From the IMG/VR virus record IMGVR_UViG_3300043932_000066: DNA of 41,421 bases; one strand, written 5' to 3'. A program made the translations under genes and the position numbers. Source of the DNA: a virus. This document shows positions 27,165 through 41,421 of the stretch, piece after piece; the first letter of the stretch is position 1; every line of letters begins with the position of its first letter. The notes beneath the pieces are model-generated. The model was not told the DNA's origin, ran no database searches, and worked only from the letters and a program-made list of their open reading frames with translations.

Positions 27165-27565
27165 GCCCCCCGATTCGCGAGCAGGTCAACCTCGAACGCG
27201 CGCTGCCCAGGGATGCCGAGCCGCTTCCTATGAACCTTCGTGAAGGACAAGGACCCGACCGCGCTCGCGTACTTCAGGGTCGCCTGATATGGCCCGGCGC
27301 CCTGCTGCACGCTCTCCACGCCGACATCCGGCCCCGCCTGCGCGTAGGCCACCATGTCGCACACGACGTCCGCCACGAGGTCCGCGTCGACGCGGCCACT
27401 GGCGATCCACTCGTCAATGTCCACGCCCGCGTTCTTGCATTCGGCGCGCACGATCCTCGACGCCCGCGCCAGCAAGGAAGGCAGACCATCGAACGCAGGG
27501 CCGAACCCGCCCTCCGTGTAGTGCGTCGGGTCAGCCAACGGCTCCAGGACGTCAGCCATGGTCAC
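27161..27565 (-). CDS. Head-tail connector (gp6-like) protein
   Basis: 134 aa. Position after the capsid gene. Overlapping start/stop junctions on both sides. Confidence 0.6.
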   Translation of the reverse strand: MTMADVLEPLADPTHYTEGGFGPAFDGLPSLLARASRIVRAECKNAGVDIDEWIASGRVDADLVADVVCDMVAYAQAGPDVGVESVQQGAGPYQATLKYASAVGSLSFTKVHRKRLGIPGQRAFEVDLLANRGA

Positions 27566-27801
27566 GCCTCCTTCACGGGAGCCTTCCGACGCGGCGAGCG
27601 CTTCGGCTTCGAAGGGTCTTCGCCAGTCTCGATGGGCTCGATGTCGCCAGTGTCGACGTCGGGGACGATGACCCCCATGTCGGCAGGCAGGCGCCGCAGA
27701 AGCTCAGCCGTCTCCTCGTCGACCTCGGCCACGCCATCCACGAACTGGACTCGCGGCGCCAAGACCAGCAAACCCGGATACTTCGATGACTCGATACGCA
27801 T
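27562..27801 (-). CDS. Hypothetical head-module protein (~79 aa)
   Basis: GGAGGAC, then ATGATG. Reads MRIESSKYPGLLVLAPRVQFVDGVAEVDEETAELLRRLP.... Basic C-terminal tail. Confidence 0.55.
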   Translation of the reverse strand: MRIESSKYPGLLVLAPRVQFVDGVAEVDEETAELLRRLPADMGVIVPDVDTGDIEPIETGEDPSKPKRSPRRKAPVKEA

Positions 27802-27823
27802 CATGTCCTCCAATGGTTGGGTG

Positions 27824-27855
27824 CCGGGGGCGCAGCGCGACGGCCACGCCCCCGG
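27824..27855 (-). terminator. 9-bp GC hairpin directly after the major capsid gene
   Basis: ccgggggcg ...14 nt... cgcccccgg, lying between the MCP stop (27863) and the next start. Confidence 0.5.
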
Positions 27856-27862
27856 AGGTAGG

Positions 27863-28837
27863 TCACGGCGTAGGAGTCGCCACGGTCAAGACGCCGTGCT
27901 TCCACTCCGCCCCGTACTTGAGCCCGATCTCCCCGTACAGCTGCGACTTCTCAGACGCGCCCGTCTTCGCCAGCGGCTCCGCGAAGAAGTGCCCCTTGCC
28001 GGGGATCTCCAGGAACCGCGGGGCGAGCTCTTCCAGTGACACGACCGCCATCTTCGTGGCGGGCATGTAGCGGTCGAGCATGATGTTCGCCCGCCCGAAA
28101 TCCGTCTCGAACGTCTGGAGGTTCACACCGCCGACATTCCGAGTGGACTCCTCGTAATTCGCGTCCTTGATGAAGATCCGCGTCAGCGCGCGCTTGAGTG
28201 CGGCGTTCACGATGACCGTGCGGGTCTCGGACTCCTGGATGCCGTTGTTCTCCCACACCGTCTGGAACAGGTCCAGGATCTCGTCCTCCGTGAGGGTTTC
28301 GGCGGTGTTCGTGGAGGTCGCCACGTTCGTGGTGATGGCCTCCAGCAGGCCACGCGTCTTGCGAGGCGCCGTGTTGTCGGTCGGCAGCGCGTACGTGCCC
28401 GTGATGAACGTCTTCTCCACGTCGCGGGCGATCTGCTTGAGCTGCTGGGCGATCTGCCACGCAGCCTCCGACTGGACGTTCGACGCCCCACCAGTCGGCA
28501 CGTTCGCCACACCGTCGGTCGCACGCTCTCCGGTCGCCGCGAGCTTCGTGTACGACACAGACACGGACTCCTGGTGGATCTCCACCACGTTGGACGCGTT
28601 GTACCGCTTCCGCTGCTCAGCCTCGGGCGCGTCCGCGCCCTCCAAGCGTTGCCGACCATCGTCGGCTTCGCGCAGGTCGTAGCCGCTCCACTCGAACATG
28701 CGGGCCTTGACGGACTCGCCGCCCGTCAGGCCGCCGATCGCGGACAGTAGCGGAGTGTCCTCAGGGGACGCGCCGATCAGCGGCCCCACGTAATTGGGCA
28801 GATTGTAAGTCGTGCCCATTCCAGTGATTCCAGGCAT
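27863..28837 (-). CDS. Major capsid protein (HK97-fold type)
   Basis: 324 aa following a scaffold gene. MPGITGMGTTYNLPNYVGPLI...MFEWSGYDL is typical of the actinophage MCP family (DUF5309-like, as I recall it). Confidence 0.85.
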   Translation of the reverse strand: MPGITGMGTTYNLPNYVGPLIGASPEDTPLLSAIGGLTGGESVKARMFEWSGYDLREADDGRQRLEGADAPEAEQRKRYNASNVVEIHQESVSVSYTKLAATGERATDGVANVPTGGASNVQSEAAWQIAQQLKQIARDVEKTFITGTYALPTDNTAPRKTRGLLEAITTNVATSTNTAETLTEDEILDLFQTVWENNGIQESETRTVIVNAALKRALTRIFIKDANYEESTRNVGGVNLQTFETDFGRANIMLDRYMPATKMAVVSLEELAPRFLEIPGKGHFFAEPLAKTGASEKSQLYGEIGLKYGAEWKHGVLTVATPTP

Positions 28838-28854
28838 GGAATACCCCTATCTCC

Positions 28855-29442
28855 TCATCGCTTCGAGGCCGAGATCTCGGCCAGTTTCTGTGCATTGAGC
28901 TGATTCACCAGCGCCCAGTCCTGCTTCTCGGTCGCCACCTTGATCTGGGCGTCCAGAGTCGCGGGCCCCGGGTTCTCGGGCTGATTGCCGAGCTGTGGGA
29001 CTACGCCAGACGGCGACCCCTTATCGGAGTCATTCGCCTGCGACTCTCCCCGCCACTTGGCGAGTGCGTCCGCGAACGCCTCCGGGTCATCGCCAGGGCC
29101 GGACAGCAGTTCAACGGGAACGCCCGTCTTTGCTGCCGCCTCAGCGACCGCCCGGGCCGCCTTCTCCGCCGCGAGCTCGCGCTGTGCAGCAGCGAGCGCA
29201 TCCGCCTGCTTCTGGGCCTCGGTCTTCTGGGACTCCTCGATCTCATGGAGTCGATCGGCGGCGTCCTTGTTGGCCTTCGCCCTCTGCTCCCACTTCCGGG
29301 CCTGTGCCTTCCAGTCCGTCTGGTCCTCCTGTGCGGGAGGCTCCGGGGCTGGGGTCTTCGGCTCGATCTTGATCGAGGCGTCTTCCACGGACGTGCCCTC
29401 AGTGGGGGTGGTGTTCTCGGCTGGCGTGCTGATGGTGCTCAT
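28855..29442 (-). CDS. Scaffolding protein
   Basis: Ala/Glu/Lys/Gln-rich coiled coil (KAQARKWEQRAKANKDAADRLHEIEESQKTEAQKQADALAAAQRELAAEKAARA). Immediately upstream of the MCP. Confidence 0.75.
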   Translation of the reverse strand: MSTISTPAENTTPTEGTSVEDASIKIEPKTPAPEPPAQEDQTDWKAQARKWEQRAKANKDAADRLHEIEESQKTEAQKQADALAAAQRELAAEKAARAVAEAAAKTGVPVELLSGPGDDPEAFADALAKWRGESQANDSDKGSPSGVVPQLGNQPENPGPATLDAQIKVATEKQDWALVNQLNAQKLAEISASKR

Positions 29443-29531
29443 TGCAGTGTTTCCTTCCATGCGGAATCACTCAGATGCCCGGGAGGGCAACTGAGCGCGG
29501 TTGATGCCCACGCTGTGCGGCAGTGGGAGAC

Positions 29532-30314
29532 TTAGGCGGCCGCCTTCATAAGGTCAGCGCGCATTTCGTCGAGTAGGTCGGTGTTGTTCGTCAGCCACCG
29601 GTTCACGTCGTCACGGTGGTTGTCCAGGACGCGCTGCGCCTGCCTCTGTTTCTTCGGATCAGACGGGTCAGCGGCGCGTGCGCGCACCTTCTCCATCCGG
29701 TCCGATGCCCGGTAGGCCATGGCCGGAACCTCACGCGCCGACGGATCCCACGACGGGACCGCCGTACACCGGCAATGACCGTGCGCCGCGAACGTCGCCG
29801 TCTTCTCCGACCGGTACACGCCCCCGCGATCAGCGAGCATCAGGCAGAAATCGCAGGACCGTGCGTGGGCGATCCGCTGCCACCCATACCCCTGCGGATC
29901 CGCCGCCGCGCTCGACGTGATCGTGTCCCGCCCGGGGAGCAGCACAGCGCGGACCAGTAGGCCGGTCAGCAGCTCCAGGACACCGGATGTCTCGCCAGTC
30001 CACAGGCCGCCGACAAGAGCACGCGTCGACGACTGGACCGCCGTGGTCGATGCCGCGTCTGCCGGGCGCGCACTGAAGCTGCCCGGCACGCGCTCCGTGG
30101 ACCGCATGTCGTCGTACCACTCCGCCGCCAGCGCGGCGTTCGCGTCACCCCATGTCTGAGCGAGCGCAGGAACGAACTCCAGAAGTCCATCACGCGCCGA
30201 CTCTGGGCGCGCCAGGTCCAGCGCGTCGAAGTACGTGGCGAGGTCGTCAGTCGCCAGACTCGCCAGCCGATTGCTGTTCGCCCTGAACTCCTGCGCTGCC
30301 ACCATCGACACCAT
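29532..30314 (-). CDS. MuF/SPP1 gp7-like minor head morphogenesis protein
   Basis: SCDFC ... HGHCRCT zinc-type motif characteristic of Phage_Mu_F. Downstream of the portal. AGGAGG lies 10 nt before the ATG at 30314. Confidence 0.8.
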   Translation of the reverse strand: MVSMVAAQEFRANSNRLASLATDDLATYFDALDLARPESARDGLLEFVPALAQTWGDANAALAAEWYDDMRSTERVPGSFSARPADAASTTAVQSSTRALVGGLWTGETSGVLELLTGLLVRAVLLPGRDTITSSAAADPQGYGWQRIAHARSCDFCLMLADRGGVYRSEKTATFAAHGHCRCTAVPSWDPSAREVPAMAYRASDRMEKVRARAADPSDPKKQRQAQRVLDNHRDDVNRWLTNNTDLLDEMRADLMKAAA

Positions 30315-31734
30315 CAGTCGACACCTCCTGACGCTGGCGAGCCGACGACAGGGCCTCACGAACCGTCTGCGCCGCCGACGCCACCTTGATCTGGGCGCGA
30401 ATACGGCGGATCTGCTCGTCTGTGTAGCCCAGCTCCTCCAACGCCACGTCTGTCTGCGCCAGGTCGGGGATTGCAGAGATCTGCTTCACCATCGCGTCCG
30501 ACTGAGACACGACACTCGGCATCGACGGGTTCCGCCACTTTGTCGATAGCCCAGCCAGCTCCTCGGGAACCTCAACCAGTCCGTCGCGCAGCATCACGAC
30601 GTTCTGATACACGCGGTTCAGCGCGTACCCGTTGACGCGGTTCGCGTTCTGAGCCTCAATGACGAGCTCCTCCTTCGCCGCGTAGATTGCCTCCGCACTC
30701 GATGGATTGTCCTGCACAATTCCAAGCTGGGAGATCGGAATTGACGTCACGCCCGAGAACTCCGCCGCCAGGGCGCGCATCCTCTCAGTAAACGGCTGGG
30801 ACGACTGCTGGGGGAGCGCCGTCACCTCCGGAACCAATCCCTCCTCGTCACGAGACACGCCCTTGATCGCAGCCATCTTCCACGTCCAGGACTTCGACAG
30901 GTCATCGAACGCCTCCTTGGTGATCCCGCGCAGCAGCAGGCCAGGCGTCGTGAACAACTCGTCTGCAACGTCGCCGCGCAGCATCGAACGGATCGCCCTG
31001 TCCGTGATGTTCATGACCGGCCGAGAGATACGCGACCTGCCGAATGGGCGATCCAGCGCCGGCCGAAACGGCAGAACCTCCATCGGCACACGCTTCAACT
31101 GGTGGTCCACAACCGAACTCTGTACCCACCCGTCACCGACGTCGCGCAGCTCGATCACCGCATCGCGCGTCAGCATCGTCAGACGTGTAGGCCGCCCATA
31201 GTCATCCACTTCGTCAATCGTCATGGCGAACGACACGGACCGTGTCCGGCGATCCCACAAGGCCGTCGCCCACTCCGCCGAATGCGGCATCACAACCACC
31301 GGAGGCTCGCCGGCGGACTCATCCCCGAGAGTCGTCGATACGAAGACGCACGAGTGCGTCATCTCTGAAGCGATCGCCTGCTCGACCTCAACGTCAAACC
31401 TGTTCGCGCGCAGGATCTCGCTCAACTCAAACGGGTCATCAGACCCGCCCGGAGCCGTCACACCGTCCCACTGGCACAGATTCGCCAGACTGTAGACGGC
31501 CTTTTCCGGCCACCCGCACACCATGTCCAATAGGTCAGCGATCTCATCAGACACGGAGATGTCAAGGTTCTTCACCAGGACGCGCGAATCGAGGTATGCC
31601 TGACGCAGGATATTGCGCGGACGCTTCCGCGACCACACTTCCACCAGCTTGTTCAGCTCATCCTGATGCGCGAACTTTGGAATCTGCGGCGCAGCGAACA
31701 TCAGCGGCGACGACATGAGTCCAGATTGAGTCAT
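30247..31734 (-). CDS. Portal protein
   Basis: 495 aa from the ATG at 31734 (AGGAGGTGATGGC, ATGA overlap with the TerL stop). Size and position are typical. The ORF-track N-terminal extension is junk. Confidence 0.9.
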   Translation of the reverse strand: MTQSGLMSSPLMFAAPQIPKFAHQDELNKLVEVWSRKRPRNILRQAYLDSRVLVKNLDISVSDEIADLLDMVCGWPEKAVYSLANLCQWDGVTAPGGSDDPFELSEILRANRFDVEVEQAIASEMTHSCVFVSTTLGDESAGEPPVVVMPHSAEWATALWDRRTRSVSFAMTIDEVDDYGRPTRLTMLTRDAVIELRDVGDGWVQSSVVDHQLKRVPMEVLPFRPALDRPFGRSRISRPVMNITDRAIRSMLRGDVADELFTTPGLLLRGITKEAFDDLSKSWTWKMAAIKGVSRDEEGLVPEVTALPQQSSQPFTERMRALAAEFSGVTSIPISQLGIVQDNPSSAEAIYAAKEELVIEAQNANRVNGYALNRVYQNVVMLRDGLVEVPEELAGLSTKWRNPSMPSVVSQSDAMVKQISAIPDLAQTDVALEELGYTDEQIRRIRAQIKVASAAQTVREALSSARQRQEVSTDGVDGGSAGVQGEQQSAGESGD

Positions 31735-33179
31735 GCCATCACCTCCTGTTTCCGTCCCGGTACTCGGTTCGTTGTCTTCGCGGCCCACAAGGCGCAGGAG
31801 ACGGCCTCGATCGGGGTCTCGTCCCCGTCCTCCGTCGTCGACTCCCAGCCCCACGCGCCAGACGTGCCACGCTTCCGCTGGTCGCACACCGCCACCGAAC
31901 TTTCGAGAGCATCCTCCATCGGATCCTCCACGCGCGGGTGAGTCACCGACCCGTCACGCACAGACTCCAGCAGCATCGCGCACGCGGTCGTGTACTCCGC
32001 CGTCGTCATCACGTGCACCTGCTTCCGGTTGCGCACGCCACGATCACGCAGAGCATCCGCCAGCACAGTCGCGCCAGCGTTCCCACACAGCACGATCATC
32101 GCCGCGCTGGCCCGCCTATCAGCCAGCCAATCCGCCACGGCCTTCACGCCAGCCTCAGTGTTACCCGTCAGCGTGCCCACAACCTCCACATGCACGCCAT
32201 CCGCGGTCTTCATCGCAGCCGCCACCGCCTGCCGTGATCCGTCCTGACTGAACGTCACCGCGAACGACCGGATGCCATCCTCCGGGCCCTCGTCCACCGC
32301 GCACGCGTCCCACAAGTCCGCCGGGATGCCGCGGCGCGCGCCCGCCTGATCCCAGATTCCCAGGGCCTCACGCTTGAACCCCTCGTCGTCCAACTGCTCA
32401 CGCAACCGGAAGATAGCGTCCTCGTCCGTACGCCCAGGGAAGGAAGGATTTGCCTTCGCCCACTGCGACTGGTCGTCAAGGTCAGCGTCATCATCCGCTG
32501 AGAACTCCACATACAGCATGTTGGAACCACGCCCATTGAGCGCCTTCGCCCGACGATCCTTGAAGACTTCCCCCTGGTCCTCTGGCCGAGGAGGCGTCCC
32601 CATCATGAACGTCAACGCGTTCTTCACCGTGTTCATGGTCGGCACCATGTCGTGCAGGGTGTTCTCTCGAAGATGCTGGGCCTCATCGAACACGACAACG
32701 CCGACCCCCGGCTCCCCTCGGCCCTGCTGCTTGTCTCGGGACCCAACCTTGATTCGCGATCCATTCCGGAAACGAATGGTCTGATTTCCGTTCCCCAAAT
32801 ACGCCTTGTCAACGAACGGAGCGACCTTGGGGAGTTCAGTCAAGGAGACCATCGACATGTACGTCTCATCCGACGTCGACAGTCTCTGGGCAGTCCATAG
32901 AACCTTGAGGCCCGGCTGACGAAGGCACATCGCGAAGATAATCATTGCCACCAGGAACGTCTTGCCCGACTGCCGAGGTATCGACAGCACCGCGCCACCC
33001 CGGGTGATCGCGTACGAACCGTTCGCCCGTTTCCCGAAGATCACGTAACCGAGCTGATCCTGCCAGTCGTCGAACTCGACACCCATCTCCACGCATTGCG
33101 CCCTGATCGCCGGCCAGCCCGTCGACTCGATCCCGGAAGGCAGGCATACATACCTGGCTGCGTCAGATAGCCGTCGCAT
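31731..33179 (-). CDS. terL: Terminase large subunit
   Basis: Walker A SIPRQSGKTFLV and Walker B GVVVFDEAQHL. Start ATG at 33179 follows GAGGAG. C-terminal nuclease-size domain. Confidence 0.9.
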   Translation of the reverse strand: MRRLSDAARYVCLPSGIESTGWPAIRAQCVEMGVEFDDWQDQLGYVIFGKRANGSYAITRGGAVLSIPRQSGKTFLVAMIIFAMCLRQPGLKVLWTAQRLSTSDETYMSMVSLTELPKVAPFVDKAYLGNGNQTIRFRNGSRIKVGSRDKQQGRGEPGVGVVVFDEAQHLRENTLHDMVPTMNTVKNALTFMMGTPPRPEDQGEVFKDRRAKALNGRGSNMLYVEFSADDDADLDDQSQWAKANPSFPGRTDEDAIFRLREQLDDEGFKREALGIWDQAGARRGIPADLWDACAVDEGPEDGIRSFAVTFSQDGSRQAVAAAMKTADGVHVEVVGTLTGNTEAGVKAVADWLADRRASAAMIVLCGNAGATVLADALRDRGVRNRKQVHVMTTAEYTTACAMLLESVRDGSVTHPRVEDPMEDALESSVAVCDQRKRGTSGAWGWESTTEDGDETPIEAVSCALWAAKTTNRVPGRKQEVMA

Positions 33180-33453
33180 CGAACTCCTCGTCCGCGACGA
33201 CAGTAAGCTCCTTCCGGCCCCGCTCGCTCTTCCTATCGAACTCACGAACCAGACCGTCAAGTCGCTCCACGTCATCCGCGAGCCGCCCCAATGCATGAGG
33301 AGGAACTCCCGAATCGATCGCCTCGGCAACCGTGTCCCGGAGCTTCACAAGAAGGTCGCGGCGGCCAAGTTCAGCCGCCTCAACAAGAGTGGCGGGGGGC
33401 TCGTGACCATGACCGTCCAGAGCGTCCGGGACTGCTTGAATCTTGCGGGGCAT
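33163..33453 (-). CDS. Putative terminase small subunit
   Basis: 96 aa with a strong RBS (AAGGAGGtcatgtc then ATG). Overlaps the TerL start by 17 nt. Assigned by position only. Confidence 0.55.
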   Translation of the reverse strand: MPRKIQAVPDALDGHGHEPPATLVEAAELGRRDLLVKLRDTVAEAIDSGVPPHALGRLADDVERLDGLVREFDRKSERGRKELTVVADEEFDATAI

Positions 33454-33618
33454 GACATGACCTCCTTATTACCATTGTTTGGCGAAGTGCTTTTTTTGAG
33501 TGCGGGGAGAGATTTCGCAGTGCCTCCGGGTGCGGCCGTGGGCCGGGGGGAGGGGGTCACCCCCTTGTTGGTAAAGGATTGGTCAAGCGTTTGCCACTGT
33601 CTCACATGTTGAGACGTC

Positions 33619-33963
33619 TCACCATTCGATCAACGTTGTCGTTGACTTGAATGGTCTGACGACGCGATGCTGACGCTTGTCGCTGAGCGAGCTGTTGCAG
33701 TGCTGGCACATGACGTTTGGTTGACCGTCAACTGTGCGCAGATTGTCCATGTCGTCAGCCTCAGCGAGTCGACCAAGGCGACGCATCGTCGCGTAGGGAA
33801 CGCGATGGTCGACCGTCACGCGCCACGGTGAGCGTGATCCTCGGGTGTAGTCCATGGGGTGCCCGCAGCGTGGGCACCGGGTGATGCCCAGGGCCTGAGC
33901 CTCGGCTTTGATGCGGGCCGCGTTGCGAAGGTACTTCGTTGTGCCTGTCCTGCTGGTGGACAT
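33619..33963 (-). CDS. HNH endonuclease (terminase-associated)
   Basis: CPRCGHPMD...VDHRVPY...DNLRTV...CQHCNSSLSDK. Located just upstream of terS/terL. Confidence 0.85.
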   Translation of the reverse strand: MSTSRTGTTKYLRNAARIKAEAQALGITRCPRCGHPMDYTRGSRSPWRVTVDHRVPYATMRRLGRLAEADDMDNLRTVDGQPNVMCQHCNSSLSDKRQHRVVRPFKSTTTLIEW

Positions 33964-34081
33964 GGGGGCGCCTCCCGATCGGTGCCGGGCATGCCCCGGG
34001 TGTTCGCGACAGGGCCCCCGGATTCTGGAAGATCTAGCCCATCACCTGCCCCTGGGACTCGATGGTCCCGGGGGCTTGGTG

Positions 34082-34167
34082 TGGCGGAAGACGGAGGATT
34101 CGAACCCCTGCCCGTGTGGGCCGCGCGGTTTTCGAGGCCGTTCCCTCGCCTTGAGGGTTCGTCTTCC
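34082..34167 (-). tRNA. Class-II tRNA-like gene, anticodon CGA (Ser) if folded conventionally; imperfect stems
   Basis: 86 nt. Perfect 7-bp acceptor (GGAAGAC/GTCTTCC), G73, encoded CCA, GGTTCGAATCC T-loop, D-loop GG, 4-bp variable arm. The anticodon stem has only 3 Watson-Crick pairs (two A-C mismatches). Confidence 0.55.
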
Positions 34168-34206
34168 AGGCCCCGGCTTGCCGTGCGGGGTGGACGGTGA
34201 TGCGTG

Positions 34207-34446
34207 TCAGTCGAATGCATGCTTGCGTGCTCGGCGCAGGTATTCGATGAGCTGGTCGAGTTTGCCGGGGTCGATGACTTGCCACATGGCGTTGAGGTGC
34301 TCTTCGTGGCGGGGGCCGACGGTTCCGTCGGCGTCGACGTGTTCGGCTTGGACGGTCTCGTCGATGGTGATGGTGACGAGTTGACCGTGCTGTGCCCAGG
34401 CGACTTCGATGCCGTCGCCGTTGGTCTTGATCTTGTCCTTGGGCAT
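34207..34446 (-). CDS. Hypothetical protein (79 aa)
   Basis: ACGGAGGGCGTG precedes the ATG. Reads MPKDKIKTNGDGIEVAWAQHGQLVTITIDETVQAEHVDADG.... Confidence 0.65.
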   Translation of the reverse strand: MPKDKIKTNGDGIEVAWAQHGQLVTITIDETVQAEHVDADGTVGPRHEEHLNAMWQVIDPGKLDQLIEYLRRARKHAFD

Positions 34447-34550
34447 CACGCCCTCCGTTCTGCCCCATCTCGGGGCGGTTGGTGGTTCGTTTCCCTCCGG
34501 GGACTGGCGTTGTGGGGATAGCGTCAGAGTGACTAGGGGGGGGTGATCGA

Positions 34551-34709
34551 ATGAGCTATTACCACTCGACGAATCCGTCGGACCCGGACGTGTATCACTG
34601 GCACGAAAACTGTCCGACGGGGCAGCAGATCCCGGCTCGGAACCGGGAGTCCGGTAAGGGTGTTGGGAACCGTCCTTGCGAGCATTGCAAGGCGATGGGC
34701 GGTTCCTGA
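34551..34709 (+). CDS. Small zinc-ribbon-like protein (52 aa), plus-strand island
   Basis: G-rich RBS, then ATG. Reads MSYYHSTNPSDPDVYHWHENCPTGQQIPARNRESGKGVGNRPCEHCKAMGGS. Followed by its own terminator. Confidence 0.6.
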   Translation: MSYYHSTNPSDPDVYHWHENCPTGQQIPARNRESGKGVGNRPCEHCKAMGGS

Positions 34710-34716
34710 TGTGAGT

Positions 34717-34747
34717 GACCCCCGGAGCCTGTGTGGTTCCGGGGGTC
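34717..34747 (+). terminator. Terminator hairpin after the small plus-strand gene
   Basis: Perfect 10-bp stem gacccccgga/tccgggggtc with an 11-nt loop, followed by tcttc. Confidence 0.6.
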
Positions 34748-34849
34748 TCTTCACGTGGCGAGAGCCGGGTGCCTCGACGTTGGCGACCCGGCTCTGTGGT
34801 GGGGACACTTCATCCCCAGCGCGATACTACAGCAGTGTGGTTCTGCTTG

Positions 34850-35668
34850 TCATGCGGCGTTCGGCGTGTCTCCTTTCCGCTTCTGGCCGTAGGCGAGGCG
34901 CTCGATGATCCACTGGTTGGCGAGGGCGAGCAGGTAGGTTGCGGGCTTGCCGGGGCGTTTGATGAGGTGCCCGCGTTGGGCCCAGACTTCCAGGGTCTTG
35001 CGTTCGACGCCCGTGATGGGGCTGTCGTCGGGCTCGTGCCAGATGTCGACGAGGCGGTCCATGGTGGCGGTGCCGGGCGCGTCGGGTCTGCGCATCTCCT
35101 GCTGCCAGTGCTGGTGTGCCTGGCGGGCGATGTCGTCCTGGTCGGCGTACCACTGGCCGCACTGCTCGCATTCACCGTGCTCGGGGATGCCGTCGCGTGT
35201 GGGCGTGGTGAGGATGCGGGCGTGGTCCCAGGGGCAGGTGCCGATTTGGGCGTCTGTGTGTCCGGTGATCCGTCCGATGACTTGGTGGGCTTGGTGGATG
35301 GTTTCGCACAGGGCGTCCCAGTCGTCGTGCTGCTGGGCGTACTCGAGCACGCCGGCCTGCTGGAGGTAGGCGAGGGCGCTTCGGGGTTGGGGGTCGTGCT
35401 TGCTGTCGGCGATCTGGCGGGCCCAGCTCATGAGCACCTCGTCGAGGCCGCGCGGGGTGCGGATCCCGGACGCGCCCTCGTCTGTGCGGTCGAGGATGCT
35501 GTCGAGGCGGAATGGGAGCGCGTCTGATGCTCCTCCGCCGCCGGGCGTGAACCTCGGTGAGGACACGCCGAGGACGGTTGCGGCCGCGTCGGACAGGAGC
35601 GGCCGCCAGGCTGCGAGGTCCTGGAGTTCTCGGCGCACGGTCTGGATGTCAGTGGTCGGCATACGCAT
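34850..35668 (-). CDS. Hypothetical protein (~270 aa) with CxxC pair and possible C-terminal HTH
   Basis: Protein-like throughout. HGECEQCGQWYADQDD. The better RBS (GAGGAGG) favours the ATG at 35662. Confidence 0.7.
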   Translation of the reverse strand: MRMPTTDIQTVRRELQDLAAWRPLLSDAAATVLGVSSPRFTPGGGGASDALPFRLDSILDRTDEGASGIRTPRGLDEVLMSWARQIADSKHDPQPRSALAYLQQAGVLEYAQQHDDWDALCETIHQAHQVIGRITGHTDAQIGTCPWDHARILTTPTRDGIPEHGECEQCGQWYADQDDIARQAHQHWQQEMRRPDAPGTATMDRLVDIWHEPDDSPITGVERKTLEVWAQRGHLIKRPGKPATYLLALANQWIIERLAYGQKRKGDTPNAA

Positions 35669-35906
35669 CCTCCTCGCGGACGTGTCGGATGATGGCGGTG
35701 ATTGACCAGCCGGTGAGGGCTTCGGTGAGCCATTTGTTGAGGGCGTTGGCGGTGGCCCAGATTCCGGCGAGGTAGAGCACGGCGAAGAGTGCGACCGCCC
35801 ACCATGTGCCGACGATGGCGTAGACGCCGGCGGCGATGAGGAACAGGGCGGTGCTGGTCGAGTAGGCGGCGACGCGCATGGCGTTCCCGGCGTTGCGGCG
35901 GTTCAC
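35649..35906 (-). CDS. Membrane protein (85 aa, 2 TM)
   Basis: AGGAGGacacgaa then GTG (GTGA overlap). TALFLIAAGVYAIVGTWWAVALFAVLYLAGIW. Confidence 0.6.
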   Translation of the reverse strand: MNRRNAGNAMRVAAYSTSTALFLIAAGVYAIVGTWWAVALFAVLYLAGIWATANALNKWLTEALTGWSITAIIRHVREEDAYADH

Positions 35907-36310
35907 TTCGTGTCCTCCTGCCAGTCGGTGACGAGGCGGGTCCACCCTTCGGGTGCAAACATCGACCGCCGCGCGCCGTGCACGTCCTCCTCGTGGAGTC
36001 CAAGCCCCTGGACGACGCGGCGGGCGGACTCTCGTGCGATCCGCTGCTCCCAGTCACTCGACGGCACACCGTCGAAGGTGCAGAGGTCGAGGACGCGCGG
36101 CCTGCCCCACGCGCCGGGGTCGATGAGTCGTGCGACCTGCTCGATAATCTGGCCCTCACTCATCGCTGGGCGCAGCTCGGCAATCACGCGGTCGGCAAAC
36201 GTCAGCGATTCCGCTCGAATGTCCTGGTCTGCGGATGGCTCCCCCGAGTCCTCGAATTCCCACATGCCCTCTGCGATGATCTTCGCGATCCGCTCTCTCA
36301 GCTCACTCAT
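35903..36310 (-). CDS. Hypothetical protein (135 aa)
   Basis: MSELRERIAKIIAEGMWEFEDSGEPSADQDIRAESLTFADRVIAEL.... Normal composition. Confidence 0.7.
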   Translation of the reverse strand: MSELRERIAKIIAEGMWEFEDSGEPSADQDIRAESLTFADRVIAELRPAMSEGQIIEQVARLIDPGAWGRPRVLDLCTFDGVPSSDWEQRIARESARRVVQGLGLHEEDVHGARRSMFAPEGWTRLVTDWQEDTK

Positions 36311-36500
36311 GGCTGCTCTCTTTCACAGACGTAGCGGGACGCCAGTGGTGAACCGCTCCGCATTCACAACGCTTCCCACTCCCGGCCAGAGACCACACAT
36401 ATGCCTCCGTCACTACGTCGCAAAACGGGCAACGAATCCCCACCCGCGACCGTCCTGTCTCGCTCACCCGGTACGCGACCTCGTACAACCGCTCACTCAT
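36303..36500 (-). CDS. Zinc-ribbon protein (65 aa)
   Basis: GAAGGAGGccgcg then ATG. Reads MSERLYEVAYRVSETGRSRVGIRCPFCDVVTEAYVWSLAGSGKRCECGAVHHW. Confidence 0.65.
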   Translation of the reverse strand: MSERLYEVAYRVSETGRSRVGIRCPFCDVVTEAYVWSLAGSGKRCECGAVHHWRPATSVKESSHE

Positions 36501-36717
36501 CGCGGCCTCCTTCGCGGATGATGCGGGCGTAGATCGTGGCGAAGTCGCGGGATGCGTCGCCCGCGTAGTTCTGCGCTTCCGCCTCGATCTCCTGCGCGCA
36601 CTGCTCGCGGACCTCCCGATCGTGGGCGGCAAGCCACAAGTCCCAGAACCCCCGCGCCTCGTCCCGTGCATACGCTTGTCCGGTCACCATGGCTCCCGAG
36701 ACGAACAGCTCTTTCAC
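36493..36717 (-). CDS. Hypothetical protein (up to 74 aa; start uncertain)
   Basis: About 82% GC3 in this frame by my count. Reads ...GQAYARDEARGFWDLWLAAHDREVREQCAQEIEAEAQNYAGD.... The whole gene is overlapped out of frame by ORF 36497..37009. Confidence 0.55.
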   Translation of the reverse strand: MKELFVSGAMVTGQAYARDEARGFWDLWLAAHDREVREQCAQEIEAEAQNYAGDASRDFATIYARIIREGGRDE

Positions 36718-37009
36718 GTCGTCTTCGGCCAGTCAGGTGGTTGGTGAGGGCGGTGATGGCGTCACGGGCGATGCGGCGCCAGTGCTCTTGGGTGGGGTCG
36801 TCTGCGTGCCTGTCCCACTTGAGCCGGTTTCCGCGTCCCTCGAACATGGCGATCGCGAAGGCTTCCACGGTCTCAGGGTCGGGGTCAGTGAGCTGGTCGA
36901 GAAGCCACTGGACGCCGTCGACGAATGCCACGTCAGGAGCCCACGGGCCTCCGCTGTCACCGGTGAGGGTGAGGTCGGCCTCGGCGCGCGCCTGGTCGAT
37001 GATGCTCAT
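36497..37009 (-). CDS. Hypothetical protein; the frame runs on about 220 nt across the next gene (possible indel or frameshift)
   Basis: MSIIDQARAEADLTLTGDSGGPWAPDVAFVDGVQWLLDQL... is protein-like to about 36720. Beyond that it is Arg-rich with low GC3 (about 45%) until the first in-frame stop at 36497. Confidence 0.55.
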   Translation of the reverse strand: MSIIDQARAEADLTLTGDSGGPWAPDVAFVDGVQWLLDQLTDPDPETVEAFAIAMFEGRGNRLKWDRHADDPTQEHWRRIARDAITALTNHLTGRRRRERAVRLGSHGDRTSVCTGRGAGVLGLVACRPRSGGPRAVRAGDRGGSAELRGRRIPRLRHDLRPHHPRRRPR

Positions 37010-37227
37010 CGCGCACCGTCCTCCGAGTCTTCTGCCATTACGGGCAGGATCCAGTAGGCGTTCCACCAAACCTGATGGTCTTCGTCTTCTTCGTCAGCGG
37101 TGCGGACGAATCCGTGATGTGGGCCGGTCATTGATTGGATGGCCGATTCTCGTGTGGCGTGTAGGTCGCCGTCCCAGTCGATAGCGTGCGTTTCCCTATC
37201 GACGATGACGTATCCGATGATGCTCAT
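37006..37227 (-). CDS. Hypothetical protein (73 aa)
   Basis: MSIIGYVIVDRETHAIDWDGDLHATRESAIQSM...SEDGAR. Bounded by the junction cassette at both ends. Confidence 0.65.
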   Translation of the reverse strand: MSIIGYVIVDRETHAIDWDGDLHATRESAIQSMTGPHHGFVRTADEEDEDHQVWWNAYWILPVMAEDSEDGAR

Positions 37228-37409
37228 CGCGCACCGGCCTCCCAGCCGCATTCGTGGCAGGTCACAGGGAGCGCGTAGCTGGTGACGTGGCGCGTGTCAG
37301 CGTCAAGCGTCATGGCGTCGGACTCCCACCACTCGGACCCGCACCTCGGGCACGCGAGATTGGTGGACTTGTTGTCGAGGCCGGGGAACGTGATGACGTT
37401 GTCACTCAT
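37224..37409 (-). CDS. Zinc-ribbon protein (61 aa)
   Basis: MSDNVITFPGLDNKSTNLACPRCGSEWWES...VTCHECGWEAGAR. Confidence 0.65.
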   Translation of the reverse strand: MSDNVITFPGLDNKSTNLACPRCGSEWWESDAMTLDADTRHVTSYALPVTCHECGWEAGAR

Positions 37410-37657
37410 CGCGCACCGTCCTTGCAGGCTTCGTGTGTGAAGTCCGGTTCCCACGACCTGGCCTCCGCTTCGACGGATGCGGCAACTGCCGAGTGCGCCT
37501 CATATCCGGACATGTTGGGCGTGATGGCTGGGTGATACGGGTTGACCGTTTGCTCGAACGTTCGCTGCCTCTGGACGCGCTTGCCGCAGATCGGGCACTT
37601 GCCCGATCGCTTCGCGTACCGACGAATGGGATGGAACCGAGTCGTGTATGTGCTCAT
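37406..37657 (-). CDS. Hypothetical protein (83 aa) with CPIC motif
   Basis: MSTYTTRFHPIRRYAKRSGKCPICGKRVQRQRTFEQTVNPYHP...CKDGAR. Confidence 0.65.
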   Translation of the reverse strand: MSTYTTRFHPIRRYAKRSGKCPICGKRVQRQRTFEQTVNPYHPAITPNMSGYEAHSAVAASVEAEARSWEPDFTHEACKDGAR

Positions 37658-37842
37658 CGCGCACCGTCCTCTTCCATGATCATGCGCAGGAGTTGCGCGC
37701 TATACGGATTGGCGGGCCTTTCAAATAGGCCGGTCTCCTCGGCCTCTTTCATGGCCCGTGCCATTGCAGCCGCGCCTTCCCGCCATGCCGCACTGGCCAG
37801 TGCAAGCCCTTCGCGCGTCTCGATCGGATCGTCCACGCTCAT
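37654..37842 (-). CDS. Hypothetical protein (62 aa)
   Basis: MSVDDPIETREGLALASAAWREGAAAMARAMKEAEETGLFERPANPYSAQLLRMIMEEDGAR. Confidence 0.65.
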   Translation of the reverse strand: MSVDDPIETREGLALASAAWREGAAAMARAMKEAEETGLFERPANPYSAQLLRMIMEEDGAR

Positions 37843-38594
37843 CGCGCACCGTCCTCGTGGTCGCCGAGCCAGGTGAGCAGCGCCTCGATAGAAGCATCCG
37901 ATGCGATCTGACCGCACCAATTGGGTGCTCTCAGCCCCTCGATCAGCTTGGTGGGCACGGCGGTGAGCGGGACAGCCTCATCGAGGCGGTCGTCCCCCAA
38001 ATTCTTGAAGATCAAAAAGTTGGTGCCGGCACCCTGAAACCCGTTGTCGCGCAGGACCGCGACACCCTCCACCGGGTAGCCCGCGTCGACTCCGCGCACC
38101 CAGTACAGTCCCGGCTCGGTCGGCCACTCAACAGGCGCAGGCTCAGGCTCCTCGGCGGGCGCGGGCGTCAACCACTCCGGGGCAACATACTGTCTTTTGA
38201 GCAGGCCAGCACTGTCGCGGGCCTCGACTTTCAGGTCGCCGTCTTCGTCCGGGCCATCCGTGATCTCGCCGGTCGTCTCGCAACCGAAGTACACGTCATC
38301 GCCGCACACGGTCTTCGCGTCACGACTCACGACAACCCGATCGCCCATACGGAACTCGCGTGCGGCGTTCTGCGGGGCGTCAACTGTGTCACCCTCCCGA
38401 GTGGGCGGGTCCGGGGCGAAAGTGTCTCCACGGGCCTGCTGGGTGCCTTCCCGGGGGTTCAGGGGCTGCCCGTAGTCGTGCGGGTCGTGGCAAATGGGGG
38501 AAGTGTCGATGCTGCGAAGCATCTCGCTGATATCGCGGAGGATCCGGACGGCTGCGGCGACCTCCCCGACAATCGTGGTGTCAGTGTCGGTCAT
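37839..38594 (-). CDS. Hypothetical protein (251 aa)
   Basis: CAAGGAGAACACC precedes the ATG. Reads MTDTDTTIVGEVAAAVRILRDISEMLRSID.... Ends with HEDGAR within the junction cassette. Confidence 0.75.
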   Translation of the reverse strand: MTDTDTTIVGEVAAAVRILRDISEMLRSIDTSPICHDPHDYGQPLNPREGTQQARGDTFAPDPPTREGDTVDAPQNAAREFRMGDRVVVSRDAKTVCGDDVYFGCETTGEITDGPDEDGDLKVEARDSAGLLKRQYVAPEWLTPAPAEEPEPAPVEWPTEPGLYWVRGVDAGYPVEGVAVLRDNGFQGAGTNFLIFKNLGDDRLDEAVPLTAVPTKLIEGLRAPNWCGQIASDASIEALLTWLGDHEDGAR

Positions 38595-38665
38595 GGTGTT
38601 CTCCTTGCATGGTCAGAGCCGCCTCCAGACGGGGACGGCTCGTTGGTATTTCTGTTGGTCATGGC

Positions 38666-39211
38666 CTAAAAGGGCGGATTCGGGTTCTGCGGCTGCGGGA
38701 ATCCCTGGTCCGCGCCCCACCCCGCCTGCTGCGGCTGCGGAGCCTGCTGGTAGGCCTGCTGCTGGGCGGCGCGGAACTGCTCCTGCGACACCTGCTGGGC
38801 GGGAGGCTGCTGACCTTGCGCGCCCCACGGATCCTGCTGAGACTGCGGCGCGTAGGCAGGCTGAGACTGCTGCTGGGCTCGCGGGATGACGCCGAGGAAC
38901 CGGGCGCCAGTCAGCTCCAGGGACTCGCCCACCCCGCCGTCCTGCCGCTGGTAGGTGCGCCGCGACAACGTGCCCTCCACGGTGACCTTCGAGCCCTTGC
39001 GCAGCTGCTCGGCAAGGCGCTCGGCCTCTTGCTCCCAGAACGTTGCGCGAACCCACAGGTCCTCGCCCACGTTCTCCCACTCGTTCGTCTGCTTGTTGAG
39101 TCGGCGCGGCGTGCATCCGATGCTCAGCCCAAGGATCGCCTTGCCCTGCTGGGACCAGCGCAGTTCCGGGTCCTGACCGAGGTTGCCGGTCACGGTGATG
39201 TGAGCGCTCAT
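38666..39211 (-). CDS. ssb: Single-stranded DNA-binding protein
   Basis: OB-fold N-terminus (MSAHITVTGNLGQDPELRWSQQGKAILGLSIG...TFWEQEAERLAEQLRKGSKVTVEG). Gln/Pro-rich tail ending in PPF. Confidence 0.9.
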   Translation of the reverse strand: MSAHITVTGNLGQDPELRWSQQGKAILGLSIGCTPRRLNKQTNEWENVGEDLWVRATFWEQEAERLAEQLRKGSKVTVEGTLSRRTYQRQDGGVGESLELTGARFLGVIPRAQQQSQPAYAPQSQQDPWGAQGQQPPAQQVSQEQFRAAQQQAYQQAPQPQQAGWGADQGFPQPQNPNPPF

Positions 39212-40512
39212 TGCTGTGCCTTCCTGGTGTCGTCGTCGATGAGGCGGGCGTGGCGGCCGTCTCTGAACATGGGGATCGTCCCCGTGCGGCCCTGCCGGTT
39301 CTTCGCGAGGATCGCGTCGATGGGGACCTCGTCGGGCAGAACGCCACTGTCGTCGGCGTCAATGAGCTGGTGGAGGAGGATCACGGCGTCCGCGTCCTGC
39401 TCGATGCTCCCTGACTCCCGCAAGGCCGCGAGGTCGGGGCGTCCACTGCCCTTCGTGGACTCGCGGTTGAGCTGGCTGGCGACGATGACGGGGCAGTCGA
39501 ACTCCTGGGCCATGAGCTTCAGGTCCCGCGTGAAGCCACTGACCTCTTGGGCGCGGGACTCGACGCGGCGCCCACTGCTCATGAGCTGGAGGTAGTCCAC
39601 GACGATGCCAGCCAGCGGGCCACCTTGGGCGGCCTCCCGGGCGTGCTCGCGCACGTCCAGCGGCGTCGTCACACCGCGGTCCCCGAACCTCAGGCCCAGC
39701 CCAGCGATGTAGGCGGCCGCCTCACTGACGGTCTGCCAGTCCGCCGGCGACAGGGGCGACGTCCCGTCCTCCCGGCGGCCCTGGAGCTTGCCCAGTGGCA
39801 CGCCGGACACCTGGGAGACGAGCCGGGTCATCACCTCCGTGGGGCGCATCTCGATGGTCTCCAGGAGGACCGGACCGCGCCGGGCGAGGTCCAAGGCTGA
39901 GGCCTGGAGCATCAGGGACTTCCCGACGCCGGGGCGGGCGCCGACGATGTACAGGCCGCCCGGGCGCCACCCGCGCAGGCCCCGGTTGAGTCCGCGCCAC
40001 GGCGTGGGCACGTAGGGCGTCGCCTCGTCGAGTTGATCGATCATCTGTTCTGCCACGGTTTCTCCTGTGAGGATCGTTGGATTGTTGTCATCGACGGCTT
40101 GGAGGCCCTGGAGGGCTTCGAGTCGGACCTCCCGCACGCTGGCGTTGCCTTGGAGGAGCTGCCAGGCGCGGGAGAGGGTGTCGCCCACTTGCTGGCGCTG
40201 GTGGCGTTCGTGGAGTTGGGCGGCGTAGGTCTCACCGAGGTGGCCGACGGGCGCCGACTGGTAGCAGTCGAACAGCCAGATCAGGTTCACCGTGGGGCGG
40301 GTGAGTTCGTCCATGAGGCCCGCGTTGCCCATGACGGTCTGCGGGTCCACGGGCTCGCCCTCACCGGAGAGGTGCTGGATGACGCGCCACGTCTCGCGGC
40401 ACCGAGGGTCGCGGAACCATTCGGCCCGCACGGCGTGGAGGTCCGCGAGGTCCCTGGGGGACTGGAACGCGATCCCCACGACCTGACGCTCAATGTCGGG
40501 CGCCTCACTCAT
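39208..40512 (-). CDS. dnaB: DnaB-family replicative helicase
   Basis: 434 aa. Walker A GARPGVGKSLMLQ. IVVDYLQLM and ESGSIEQDADAVILLH motifs. Confidence 0.9.
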   Translation of the reverse strand: MSEAPDIERQVVGIAFQSPRDLADLHAVRAEWFRDPRCRETWRVIQHLSGEGEPVDPQTVMGNAGLMDELTRPTVNLIWLFDCYQSAPVGHLGETYAAQLHERHQRQQVGDTLSRAWQLLQGNASVREVRLEALQGLQAVDDNNPTILTGETVAEQMIDQLDEATPYVPTPWRGLNRGLRGWRPGGLYIVGARPGVGKSLMLQASALDLARRGPVLLETIEMRPTEVMTRLVSQVSGVPLGKLQGRREDGTSPLSPADWQTVSEAAAYIAGLGLRFGDRGVTTPLDVREHAREAAQGGPLAGIVVDYLQLMSSGRRVESRAQEVSGFTRDLKLMAQEFDCPVIVASQLNRESTKGSGRPDLAALRESGSIEQDADAVILLHQLIDADDSGVLPDEVPIDAILAKNRQGRTGTIPMFRDGRHARLIDDDTRKAQQ

Positions 40513-41421
40513 CGTCAGGACCGAACCCGTAGACGACCGGGCGGGCTGGAGTGTCGAGTCCGCCTGCCGGTCTCAGGAGCCCGTCGCGGGCCGCGTACTC
40601 GACGGCGTTGGTCAACCAGTTCCGGAACGCGGCGTCCCAGTCTGAGTAGCGCCTGTCGTTGGCCAGTGCCGAGGACCGGAACTTGTCGACTTGGCGCTGG
40701 AGGTCGAGGTGGAGGCTCGCTGCTTTCTCCGCGTGAGCTTCGTTCGGGGTCCAGTCGTCAGGCAGTGAGGTCTTCGGTCGCTTCCGGCTCTTCGATGTCT
40801 GAGTTCCCGCGTCAGCGGGAACCGGGCTCAGACACGTTAGTGTCTGGGTGCTGGTACTGGTGCTGGGGGAGGAACCAAATTGGAAGGGTTCCCCCTCCAT
40901 CAGGGGGATTATGGATTGAACCGAATCGGAACCGGAATGGAACCAATCGGGAACCAAATCGGAAGGGTTCCCAATCGGTTCCGGGAACTGCTTCGCCACC
41001 GGACTCGCGAACGAGGCGCCCCGATAGTCCGGATGTTCTTCGATGGTCCGACGGACCTCGATGGACACCAACTCCATGAGCTTCTGAGACGCGATCGTCG
41101 CGTGGTCGCGGACGATCATCTTCGCGATGTTGGGAGACTTAAGCCCCCCGTCGTGACGGACGAACGACCGGACCAACGCCTCCTCCGTGTCCGGGTCCAC
41201 GGCGATGAGTCGATGCTGACCGAGCCTCCACGCCGCTTCCCTGAGCGTGGGGATGTCCAGCCCCTCGGCCATCTTGATGAGCTTCGGCTCCCGCCACTCC
41301 ATGACGCCGCACGACGTCAGCGTGGGGTACGTGAGCATCGTAAAGTACAGCCATTGCGCGGCCAGCGGGACGTTCCGGAAGTCGGGGTCATTCCAGATCG
41401 TCAGATACACGCTCGCGTAGG
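40505..41421 (-). CDS. Replication initiator / replisome organiser (5' end cut by the window edge; true start wraps to 137)
   Basis: Immediately upstream of dnaB (8-nt overlap). Two protein-like domains flank a low-complexity linker that coincides with the iteron array. Assigned by synteny only. Confidence 0.65.
   Translation of the reverse strand, partial: YASVYLTIWNDPDFRNVPLAAQWLYFTMLTYPTLTSCGVMEWREPKLIKMAEGLDIPTLREAAWRLGQHRLIAVDPDTEEALVRSFVRHDGGLKSPNIAKMIVRDHATIASQKLMELVSIEVRRTIEEHPDYRGASFASPVAKQFPEPIGNPSDLVPDWFHSGSDSVQSIIPLMEGEPFQFGSSPSTSTSTQTLTCLSPVPADAGTQTSKSRKRPKTSLPDDWTPNEAHAEKAASLHLDLQRQVDKFRSSALANDRRYSDWDAAFRNWLTNAVEYAARDGLLRPAGGLDTPARPVVYGFGPDDE
40803..40988. repeat. Iteron/dyad array inside the initiator ORF (probable origin of replication)
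   Basis: GGAACCAAAT(T/C)GGAAGGGTTCCC at 40871-40893 and 40950-40972. Extra GGAACC/GGTTCC half-sites at 40928, 40939, 40977. Dyads gttcccgc-gtca-gcgggaac (40803-40822) and cagacac-gtta-gtgtctg (40829-40846). Confidence 0.6.
41295..41421. repeat. Terminal direct repeat, copy 2 (identical to 1..127)
   Basis: Same 127-nt string as the window start. It lies inside the replication-initiator ORF, so that gene is split by the linearisation point. Confidence 0.95.

Follow-up and report, generated by a model that had tools for sequence, protein, structure and literature searches.

A stop/start junction repeated between small early genes of an uncultured phage genome as a probable translational coupler and homology linker

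Why should the same 20 or so nucleotides (nt) stand at five consecutive borders between small genes that are otherwise unrelated? The question is raised by the early operon of IMGVR_UViG_3300043932_000066, an IMG/VR virus record that was analysed over its whole length of 41,421 nt, hereafter the window. The repeated element spans the stop and start codons between six genes, designated gA to gF, and it bears on how phage mosaics arise, by homologous exchange at short linkers or by random illegitimate recombination followed by selection. Our comparisons make it probable, although not assured, that the motif is a translational-coupling junction that doubles as a linker, its short homology allowing cassettes to be shuffled. 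It is best placed as a coding-embedded form of known boundary sequences and promoter-early stem-loops (PeSLs), not as a new category, and it is not a start-associated sequence (SAS).

On the plus strand, the string CTCATCGCGCACCG(T/G)CCT is found at 37005, 37223, 37405, 37653 and 37838, as an initial annotation had proposed, and always in one orientation. With CTCATCGCGCACCGKCCT as the search string, 0.20 copies are expected by chance, and five were not attained in any of 100 dinucleotide-preserving shuffles; when the window was scanned on both strands with the 19-mer, no further site came up with fewer than four mismatches. An independent repeat search returned the same five-copy family, clustered within 850 bp with spacings of 218, 182, 248 and 185 nt. 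All genes in this region lie on the minus strand, on which the copies read (G)AGGACGGTGCGCGATGAG(C/T), with one GGCC variant, and are laid out as (G)AGGACGGTGCGCG-ATGA-GY. In codons, each copy is GAG/AAG-GAC/GCC-GGT-GCG-CGA-TGA, with the stop overlapping the next ATG as ATGA and followed by AGC or AGT. The upstream proteins terminate in HEDGAR, EEDGAR, CKDGAR, WEAGAR and SEDGAR, and all downstream proteins begin with MS, so that the annotated stop/start reading is correct at every copy. The copies at 37005 and 37223 share a longer stretch because gE and gF have their first 13 nt in common; it had been given as 27 bp with one mismatch and measures 28 nt with one mismatch.

In this operon and its homologues in relatives, neighbouring genes nearly always overlap, either by 4 nt (ATGA/GTGA) or by 8 nt (ATGAGTGA), with a purine-rich Shine–Dalgarno (SD) sequence 6–9 nt upstream and, very frequently, an ATGAGY start. 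Since almost every junction follows this pattern of overlap plus SD, the motif is one instance of a generic coupled junction. Counted from the ATG, all five copies have AGGA at −13 and GGTG at −8, and their predicted pairing with the actinobacterial 16S ribosomal RNA (rRNA) 3′ tail, the sequence of which is general knowledge, amounts to −11.8 to −13.1 kcal/mol (AGGA, one bulged C, GGUG); the 33 other starts of the genome average −9.1 kcal/mol, with −16.7 kcal/mol as the strongest. The coupling architecture suggested in the initial annotation, an ATGA overlap with a strong SD in the upstream gene, is thus present throughout. Because such overlaps have been linked experimentally to termination–reinitiation that is usually SD-dependent (PMC6728339), we infer on good grounds that the five junctions couple translation: the last five codons of the upstream gene would hold the SD (AGGA…GGUG) that pairs with the 16S 3′ tail, and the UGA stop overlapping the next AUG would allow a terminating ribosome to re-initiate on the next small gene. 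Generic ATGA junctions likewise have a 4-nt overlap and an SD located in the upstream gene (PMC6728339), but each has its own spacer, whereas here one 19–20-mer is reused at several borders and across diverged genomes.

Comparison with related contigs, gathered via the motif, via gA and via gD and denoted by L numbers, shows which genes the junction connects. The order in the window is gA-m-gB-m-gC-m-gD-m-gE-m-gF (m, motif copy); this array is 100% identical in five contigs, which contribute no independent information. In L271 (= L029) the order is gA-m-gD-m-gF, in L282 and L286 gA-m-gD, in L287 gA-m-gE′-m-gX-(other junction)-gF, in L280 gA-m-gX-(other junction)-gF, and in L288 gA-m′-gC′. One junction of about 20 nt makes 11 distinct gene adjacencies across these genomes, and what follows gA and the motif is gB, gD, a gE-like gene, gX or a gC-like gene: gene content varies around a fixed junction, and sequence identity breaks at the motif. 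In L271, gA and gF are each 72% identical to the window, and the gD segment is 98.1% identical over exactly 37215–37422. The corresponding values are 79% in gA and 99.0% in gD after the motif for L282, 86–93% and 99.4% for L286, and 75% in gA and 93.7% in gE for L287. Identity blocks begin and end at motif copies in L271, L282, L286, L287 and L288; copy 3 is the left edge of a 98–99% identity block common to the window, L271, L282 and L286, and copy 4 is both the right edge of this gD block and the left edge of the gE block in common with L287. As a protein, gD is 97% identical (98–99% in nucleotides) between backbones in which gA is merely 72–86% identical, and one other protein cluster only was found for it among 5.8 billion. 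Because these cassettes are nearly identical, synonymous sites included, in backbones that have diverged by 14–28%, the comparison indicates that they moved recently, with end points in the motif. The recombination-linker reading offered in the initial annotation gains its support from this variation and from the exact breaks.

A rival explanation holds that the genes were joined by illegitimate recombination and that the survivors, all with a working junction, converged on one optimum, in which case the motif would mark selection and not mechanism. We judge this unlikely as the principal explanation. Motif-bounded cassettes of 98–99% identity in backbones of 72–86% identity point to recent transfer with ends in the motif, and up to five borders of one genome agree at 19–20 of 20 positions, the rare codons GGT and CGA included. 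Elsewhere in the same operons, junctions that couple equally well differ greatly in sequence and do not tend towards the motif. A 28-nt direct repeat, as found around gE (described below), is the trace that homologous insertion leaves. Convergence does draw support from breakpoints that lie off the motif in the same region, and from the recurrence of the motif elsewhere.

The exact 17-mer GGACGGTGCGCGATGAG occurs 29 times in 28 viral contigs with 23 different flank contexts, and 25 of the 29 occurrences are stop/start junctions by a criterion based on open reading frames (ORFs); by a stricter one based on GC content at third codon positions (GC3), 16 of 25 are. The flanking proteins are unrelated between contexts, with about 20 unrelated gene pairs joined (…xDGAR-stop/M(S/R)…). 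Four composition-matched permutations of the spacer served as controls and gave 0, 9, 18 and 8 hits, with 0, 2, 3 and 1 junctions by the ORF criterion; by the GC3 criterion the last three gave 0/9, 1/18 and 0/8, or 1/35 for the four pooled. Two synonymous variants that still encode DGAR-stop were enriched at junctions as well: the GGC variant had 10 hits with 7 (ORF) and 5/10 (GC3) at junctions, and the GCC variant 20 hits with 16 (ORF) and 15/20 (GC3). In bacterial genomes and metagenomes, among the matches listed (at least 120 each), the sequence is found as single-copy occurrences only, with a junction share of 35–38% for the GGAC form and 3–9% for the GGCC form. A reference set of 96 GC3-supported ATGA junctions, chosen independently of the motif scans, shows what such junctions prefer: AGGA peaks at −13 and GGTG at −9/−8, the commonest tail is GGAR, the top last codon CGA (28/96) and the top second codon AGC (38/96). 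The motif is close to a concatenation of these favoured choices for coupled junctions in high-GC genomes, and the preferences therefore explain much, although not all, of the independent recurrence of the 17-mer. The 17-mer contigs (L001–L028 and L324–L353) are diverse, and in L001, L006, L013, L020 and L023 neighbouring junctions have a like form, for example GGGCGGTGCCCGATGA, GGACGGTGGGCGATGA and GGGAGGTGCGTCATGA.

Two observations are incompletely explained by junction preferences. The control GGACGGTGGCGCATGAG fits them, yet is rare at junctions; and an unrelated viral contig, L019 (IMGVR_UViG_3300020049_007013; 52.6% GC, with P2-like baseplate genes and a primase of the D5 type), has GGACGGTGCGCGATG, exactly or with at most 3 mismatches, at six borders between small genes, many of them Cys-rich. 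These genes, in regions 4601–5619 (plus strand) and 8160–9084 (minus strand), end in …TDGAR, …DGTR or …DGTP, and the 8 motif hits compare with 0.86 expected, the GC-rich motif standing out from the genome. One L019 copy now lies 30 nt inside a gene (…IEDGARNAPQTEDAK-stop). Contigs homologous to L019 are short only, and all lack the array. Because the 17-mer joins about 20 gene pairs, outperforms its permutations and occupies six junctions of L019, we keep open a stronger proposal, although it is improbable: that of a dedicated cassette system, in which circles of gene plus junction would be excised and re-inserted at any copy by a RecET-like or sequence-specific factor, with GGACGGTGCGCGATGAG perhaps serving as a widely used re-initiation adaptor in phage early operons.

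Where the motif came from can be traced through gA, the gene upstream of the array. Across a group of uncultured temperate actinophage-like genomes the motif is native to the 3′ end of gA, where the family's own C terminus, W-x-x-D-H-E-D-G-A-R, supplies it, and it arose there as the natural end of the gene. Seven gA homologues with 47–60% amino acid identity end in W-x-x-(D/N)-H-E-(D/A/G)-G-A-R, with CAC GAG GAC GGT GCG CGA TGA nearly invariant; more distant ones end in …HEEAGR, …HEEARG or …HEEARR. The copy-1 sequence also terminates gA in L271, L280, L286 and L287, and does so with one or two changes in L282 and L288. Conservation is concentrated in the motif: mean pairwise identity among the seven lineages is 0.92 over its 20 nt and 0.70, 0.46 and 0.30 over the three 21-nt blocks upstream, and synonymous differences are rarer in it (6/94 identical-residue codon pairs, against 24/136 in adjacent gA). 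In gC the DGAR tail is not native to the family and was grafted on, as the distant homologues gp17 of Microbacterium phage FuzzBuster and orf53 of Tsukamurella phage TPA4 have the ends …CKAA and …CETP. The gE-like gene of L287 is a chimera of a gE N terminus and the C-terminal half of the gG family, ending in …LIREDGAR at a motif copy, whereas the native gG-family end is …IREGGR(D/H)E. The window gE is flanked on both sides by the 28-nt direct repeat, made up of copy 4 plus the next 9 nt and of copy 5, and its first codons, ATGAGCATCATCG, are gF-like and unlike those of the L287 gE, ATGAGCATCCTTG. The repeat and the converted codons form the pattern of Campbell-type insertion, unequal crossover or gene conversion, which would have occurred at the junction. 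The GGCC variant (Ala for Asp) is at the gD/gE border in the window and at the gA/gD border in L282 (2388–2407), reflecting either independent mutation or gene conversion between copies.

Could the repeat simply be coding sequence duplicated among recent tandem paralogues, the outcome that the initial annotation named as decisive against its reading? Shared gene ends, including the 13 nt at the starts of gE and gF, are all that speaks for this, and it can be set aside with near certainty. All-against-all blastp and blastn comparisons of gA to gF found the 17–19-nt junction, plus those 13 nt, as the sole similarity, and the proteins belong to different PHROG/Pfam families or to none, with unlike lengths and cysteine patterns. 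As annotated, the genes between the copies are unrelated and some are zinc ribbons, namely gC and gD, both of Cys4 type. The homologues of gB are confined to identical contigs; none was found among cultured phages for gB or for gE.

The near absence of synonymous change also bears on whether the peptide, and not the DNA, is what matters, with C-terminal …DGAR as a functional tag for degradation, for interaction or as a termination context, and with the DNA repeat as its by-product. The enrichment of synonymous DGAR-stop variants at viral junctions (GCC 15–16/20, GGC 5–7/10) and one L019 copy with the synonymous GAT for GAC would fit a tag. In the window group, though, the five codons show almost no synonymous variation and rare codons are used; protein tails vary (EDGAR, KDGAR, EAGAR, EGGAR, and DGTR and DGTP in L019) while the nucleotides stay close, conservation runs past the stop into the first two codons of the next gene, and the gC family works without the tail. 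We therefore regard a peptide signal as very improbable.

Nucleotide-level conservation, synonymous sites included, is also what a regulatory operator would produce. Here a phage or host protein or a small RNA would bind the motif and co-regulate the five small genes, with shuffling as a side effect, either as a translational operator on mRNA (like T4 RegA targets, or as proposed for SAS) or as a DNA site (like cluster A stoperators). In keeping with this, the 9-nt spacer (CGGTGCGCG) and the second codon are conserved beyond the needs of the SD and the ATGA overlap, the motif is asymmetric and in a single orientation, as SAS and stoperators are (PMC3203893), and zinc-ribbon proteins are encoded inside the array. 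Its distribution tells against an operator, which we consider quite unlikely. The expectation that relatives would keep the motif holds for L271, L280, L282, L286, L287 and L288 and fails for L030, L281 and L283, which share the operon and whose gA genes are terminated by other sequences; an indispensable regulatory site is therefore disfavoured. Copies per relative range from 0 to 5, close relatives with the same operon carrying 0, 1 or 2 (one in L280), and the number follows the inserted cassettes, not a fixed regulon. The motif is joined to different genes in different genomes, and the five copies in 850 bp have none to accompany them elsewhere in the genome. The searches gave no candidate binding factor, and the window holds no reverse-complement copy or other-strand near-copy that could act as an antisense or small-RNA partner. 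There was no Rfam match in the window and no inverted repeat at the motif copies in the repeat search, and the five 101-nt RNA contexts fold dissimilarly and no better than shuffles (z-scores of +1.6 to −1.0). L030 (IMGVR_UViG_3300044545_000029), one of the relatives that lack the motif, is 93% identical to the window in DnaB and 97.6% in structural genes. Its gA has an unrelated C-terminal half and ends in …DHGQTGE at the junction caggagaATGAccATGAgc.

Further candidates were dropped. A programmed −1 frameshift joining the small ORFs, suggested by a downstream frame that is open 5′ of each ATG, was rejected, as the motif has no slippery heptamer. Likenesses to 16S rRNA helix 45 and to lactococcal Chi were set aside as unsupported. 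A sixth, degenerate copy annotated at 36496 turned out to be the native gG-family junction, alignable to the motif only with indels and kept in the same form in L030, L280 and L281. It represents a second recurrent junction type, defined by the 8-nt ATGAGTGA overlap, with upstream tails …(D/H)E-stop and downstream starts MS(E/D); borders in L280, L281, L283 and L030 use it as well.

We return to the motif as a coupling junction and homology linker. The same 20 bp or so at several borders would offer identical homology for recombination, by which small genes lying between copies could be lost, gained, exchanged or fused. The driver may be the phage's own RecE/RecT-like system, whose proteins are candidate machinery for short-homology recombination at the motif, or that of the host, and the exchange may take place within one genome, between co-infecting relatives or prophages, or through excised circles. 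A gene that enters via the junction would find its ribosome-binding site and start codon ready-made, together with a properly positioned stop for the gene upstream, and its immediate expression would favour propagation, which is why the junction would spread through the hypervariable early-gene run between gA and gF. In phages, mosaics are known to form at short or diverged homology through the action of Rad52-like annealases (PMC3945230).

Several points weigh against this proposal. The minimal efficient pairing segment is 23–27 bp for Red-beta and 31–34 bp for RecA; the motif, with 19–20 bp (28 bp, with one mismatch, for two copies), is at or below these lengths (PMC3945230), so that recombination at it would be rare. 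Nearby breakpoints lie off the motif, namely in the gE/gG fusion of L287, the fusion of gF with the 135-aa gene in L271 and the gF/gG scar of the window, and illegitimate recombination with selection for working junctions clearly operates too. With the exact 17-mer at unrelated junctions elsewhere, some copies may be identical by convergence. Both coupling and recombination are read from comparative evidence only and from few lineages: the informative comparisons come to about six, several of them short contigs, and the gA–gD adjacency is found in three, possibly from one event.

How does the motif relate to systems already described? Short conserved boundary (linker) sequences were proposed for modular exchange in the Susskind–Botstein model, with lambdoid examples and a case of about 50 bp in Island3/Brujita, although linkers are seldom found at mosaic boundaries (PMC3029335). 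The motif resembles them as a short sequence common to the borders of otherwise unrelated genes, with mosaic breakpoints on it and with general or phage recombination enzymes as the presumed agents. It differs in its length of about 20 bp, in its position inside coding sequence over a stop/start overlap, in its occurrence at up to five tandem borders per genome and at least 11 adjacencies, and in carrying SD, stop and start; recombination is suggested here by comparative traces, such as the 28-nt direct repeat around gE. PeSLs of T4-type phages have been described as ‘mobile regulatory cassettes’ (PMC2839356, PMC4122927). In both systems repeated expression signals flank small non-essential ORFs of a hyperplastic region, the repeats mark the limits of insertions, deletions and replacements between relatives, an inserted gene inherits the expression signal, and flanking direct repeats fit the insertion of circles. 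PeSLs, however, are intergenic and consist of a sigma-70 promoter and a terminator hairpin, whereas a scan of the array found no promoter-like or terminator-like site, and the motif has no hairpin, overlaps two reading frames and would act, if at all, on translation; mini-circles are a PeSL feature.

The analogy with SAS drawn in the initial annotation does not stand. SAS of cluster K mycobacteriophages and cluster EF Microbacterium phages occur as 10–19 copies dispersed in the non-structural half of the genome (PMC3203893, PMC7302621). Their consensus, GGGATAGGAGCCC / GGGAAAGGACCCC, lies in non-coding gaps at a distance of 3–7 bp from the start codon, and 17-bp inverted repeats stand upstream of about half the copies (extended SAS, ESAS). 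Like SAS, the motif is asymmetric, in one orientation and over-conserved, occupies the ribosome-binding position of non-structural genes from various families and combines an SD core with conserved bases that cannot pair with rRNA. Its sequence is another one, its five copies are clustered, it lies in the last five codons of the upstream gene with an ATGA overlap, its copies lack ESAS inverted repeats, and it is neither kept across the phage group (0–5 copies) nor tied to fixed gene families. The analogy fails, then, on copy number, dispersion, non-coding location, ESAS and cluster-wide conservation. Cluster A stoperators are asymmetric repressor sites of about 13 bp, oriented with transcription and present in 20–30 copies genome-wide, unlike the five local copies here. 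Integron attC sites are imperfect inverted repeats that form a hairpin recombination site, with IntI, attI and Pc adjacent; the motif has no inverted repeats, and the sole integrase is an ordinary phage enzyme about 25 kb away.

The locus is an unusually clean natural example of the linker view, with one 20-nt sequence at 11 or more adjacencies and near-identical cassettes in diverged backbones. Its linker is at the same time an expression signal (ribosome-binding site, stop and start) that would make an incoming small gene functional at once, which points to a simple route by which phages could assemble and rearrange sets of small early genes. Such genes often have host-takeover or counter-defence functions. 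The junction could also guide how synthetic polycistronic cassettes are designed for high-GC hosts. Among the cultured phage genomes of INPHARED, none has several motif copies.

Table 1 Positions of the junctions, genes and recombination functions in the window
Feature	Position	Strand	Description
gA	37839–38594	−	251 aa, phrog_20471; conserved anchor gene downstream of SSB
Junction copy 1 (gA/gB)	37837–37856	−	GAGGACGGTGCGCGATGAGC; native 3′ end of gA (…HEDGAR-stop), ATGA overlap, gB start
gB cassette	37654–37842	−	62 aa
Junction copy 2 (gB/gC)	37652–37671	−	GAGGACGGTGCGCGATGAGC
gC cassette	37406–37657	−	83 aa, zinc-binding, phrog_35236
Junction copy 3 (gC/gD)	37404–37422	−	AGGACGGTGCGCGATGAGT
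gD cassette	37224–37409	−	61 aa, zinc ribbon
Junction copy 4 (gD/gE)	37222–37241	−	GAGGCCGGTGCGCGATGAGC, GGCC variant
gE cassette	37006–37227	−	73 aa; truncated form of the 131-aa gE-like gene of L287, motif joined after …MAED
Junction copy 5 (gE/gF)	37004–37023	−	GAGGACGGTGCGCGATGAGC
gF (MSIIDQ…)	36733–37009	−	Conserved downstream anchor of the variable region
gG-family native junction (not a motif copy)	36493–36516	−	cgcgaaggaggccgcgATGAgtga; …IREGGRDE-stop/MSE…, 8-nt ATGAGTGA overlap
135-aa gene (g135)	35903–36310		
ATGAGTGA overlaps	5584–5591, 40505–40512, 36493–36500, 36303–36310		
RecE-type exonuclease	3277–4110	−	phrog_412 (E = 5e-96)
RecT-like annealing protein	2642–3280	−	phrog_561 (E = 2.5e-45)
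Integrase	10479–11729		Ordinary phage type, about 25 kb from the array

The two ends of the window (1–127 and 41295–41421) are the same 127 nt, and the related contig L275 aligns unbroken across them. For this reason the window is a complete circular assembly of about 41.3 kb (about 41,294 bp), with the end overlap probably a k-mer overlap left by the assembler. Portal and capsid genes are of SPP1 type, and the early operon runs from a replication initiator through DnaB, SSB and gA to the small genes. No close cultured phage was found, the best DnaB match being 38% identical, in Microbacterium phages; the window is therefore an uncultured temperate phage, probably with a high-GC actinobacterium as host. 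A check of prophage-like matches in genomes gave no further pointer to the host. Beside the RecE/RecT pair and the integrase it encodes a RusA-like resolvase and an HNH endonuclease (recombination loci at 2642–4110, 638–1024, 10479–11729 and 33619–33963). L271-type relatives have a YqaJ-type exonuclease in place of the RecE-like one, and because of this the recombination module itself is mosaic.

At the downstream end of the array, gF of the window has no stop of its own. After …TNHL (relatives end in …(G)ADHE) its frame stays open for about 70 codons, to 36497, and this read-through frame (36497–37009, minus strand) crosses the next gene, 36493–36717, which lies in another frame, starts with GTG, is preceded by hardly any SD (−2.3 kcal/mol) and has a shorter N terminus than its homologue in L030. 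Predictions by gene callers differ, some giving a gF of 170 aa and others no gene. The 3′ region of gF looks like a recent scar of illegitimate recombination or a pseudogene. The gF-like gene of L271 (10183–10494 of that contig) is a chimera of the gF N terminus and the last 13 codons (…RLVTDWKEDTK-stop) of the 135-aa gene of the window, matching window positions 36855–37027 and 35903–35941, the latter at 97% identity over 39 nt. A further border conserved throughout the relatives is formed by this …TDWQED(TK/AQ/AG)-stop end and its SD, caggaggac.

Exchange is also visible on a larger scale. L276 (JGI 3300045590 Ga0455771_00350), a contig of 43.6 kb, is 100% identical to positions 27224–41421 of the window, a 14.2-kb stretch that begins in the capsid genes and includes the early operon, and has different genes elsewhere (92–95% identity or none), which indicates a very recent large-scale exchange between co-occurring phages.

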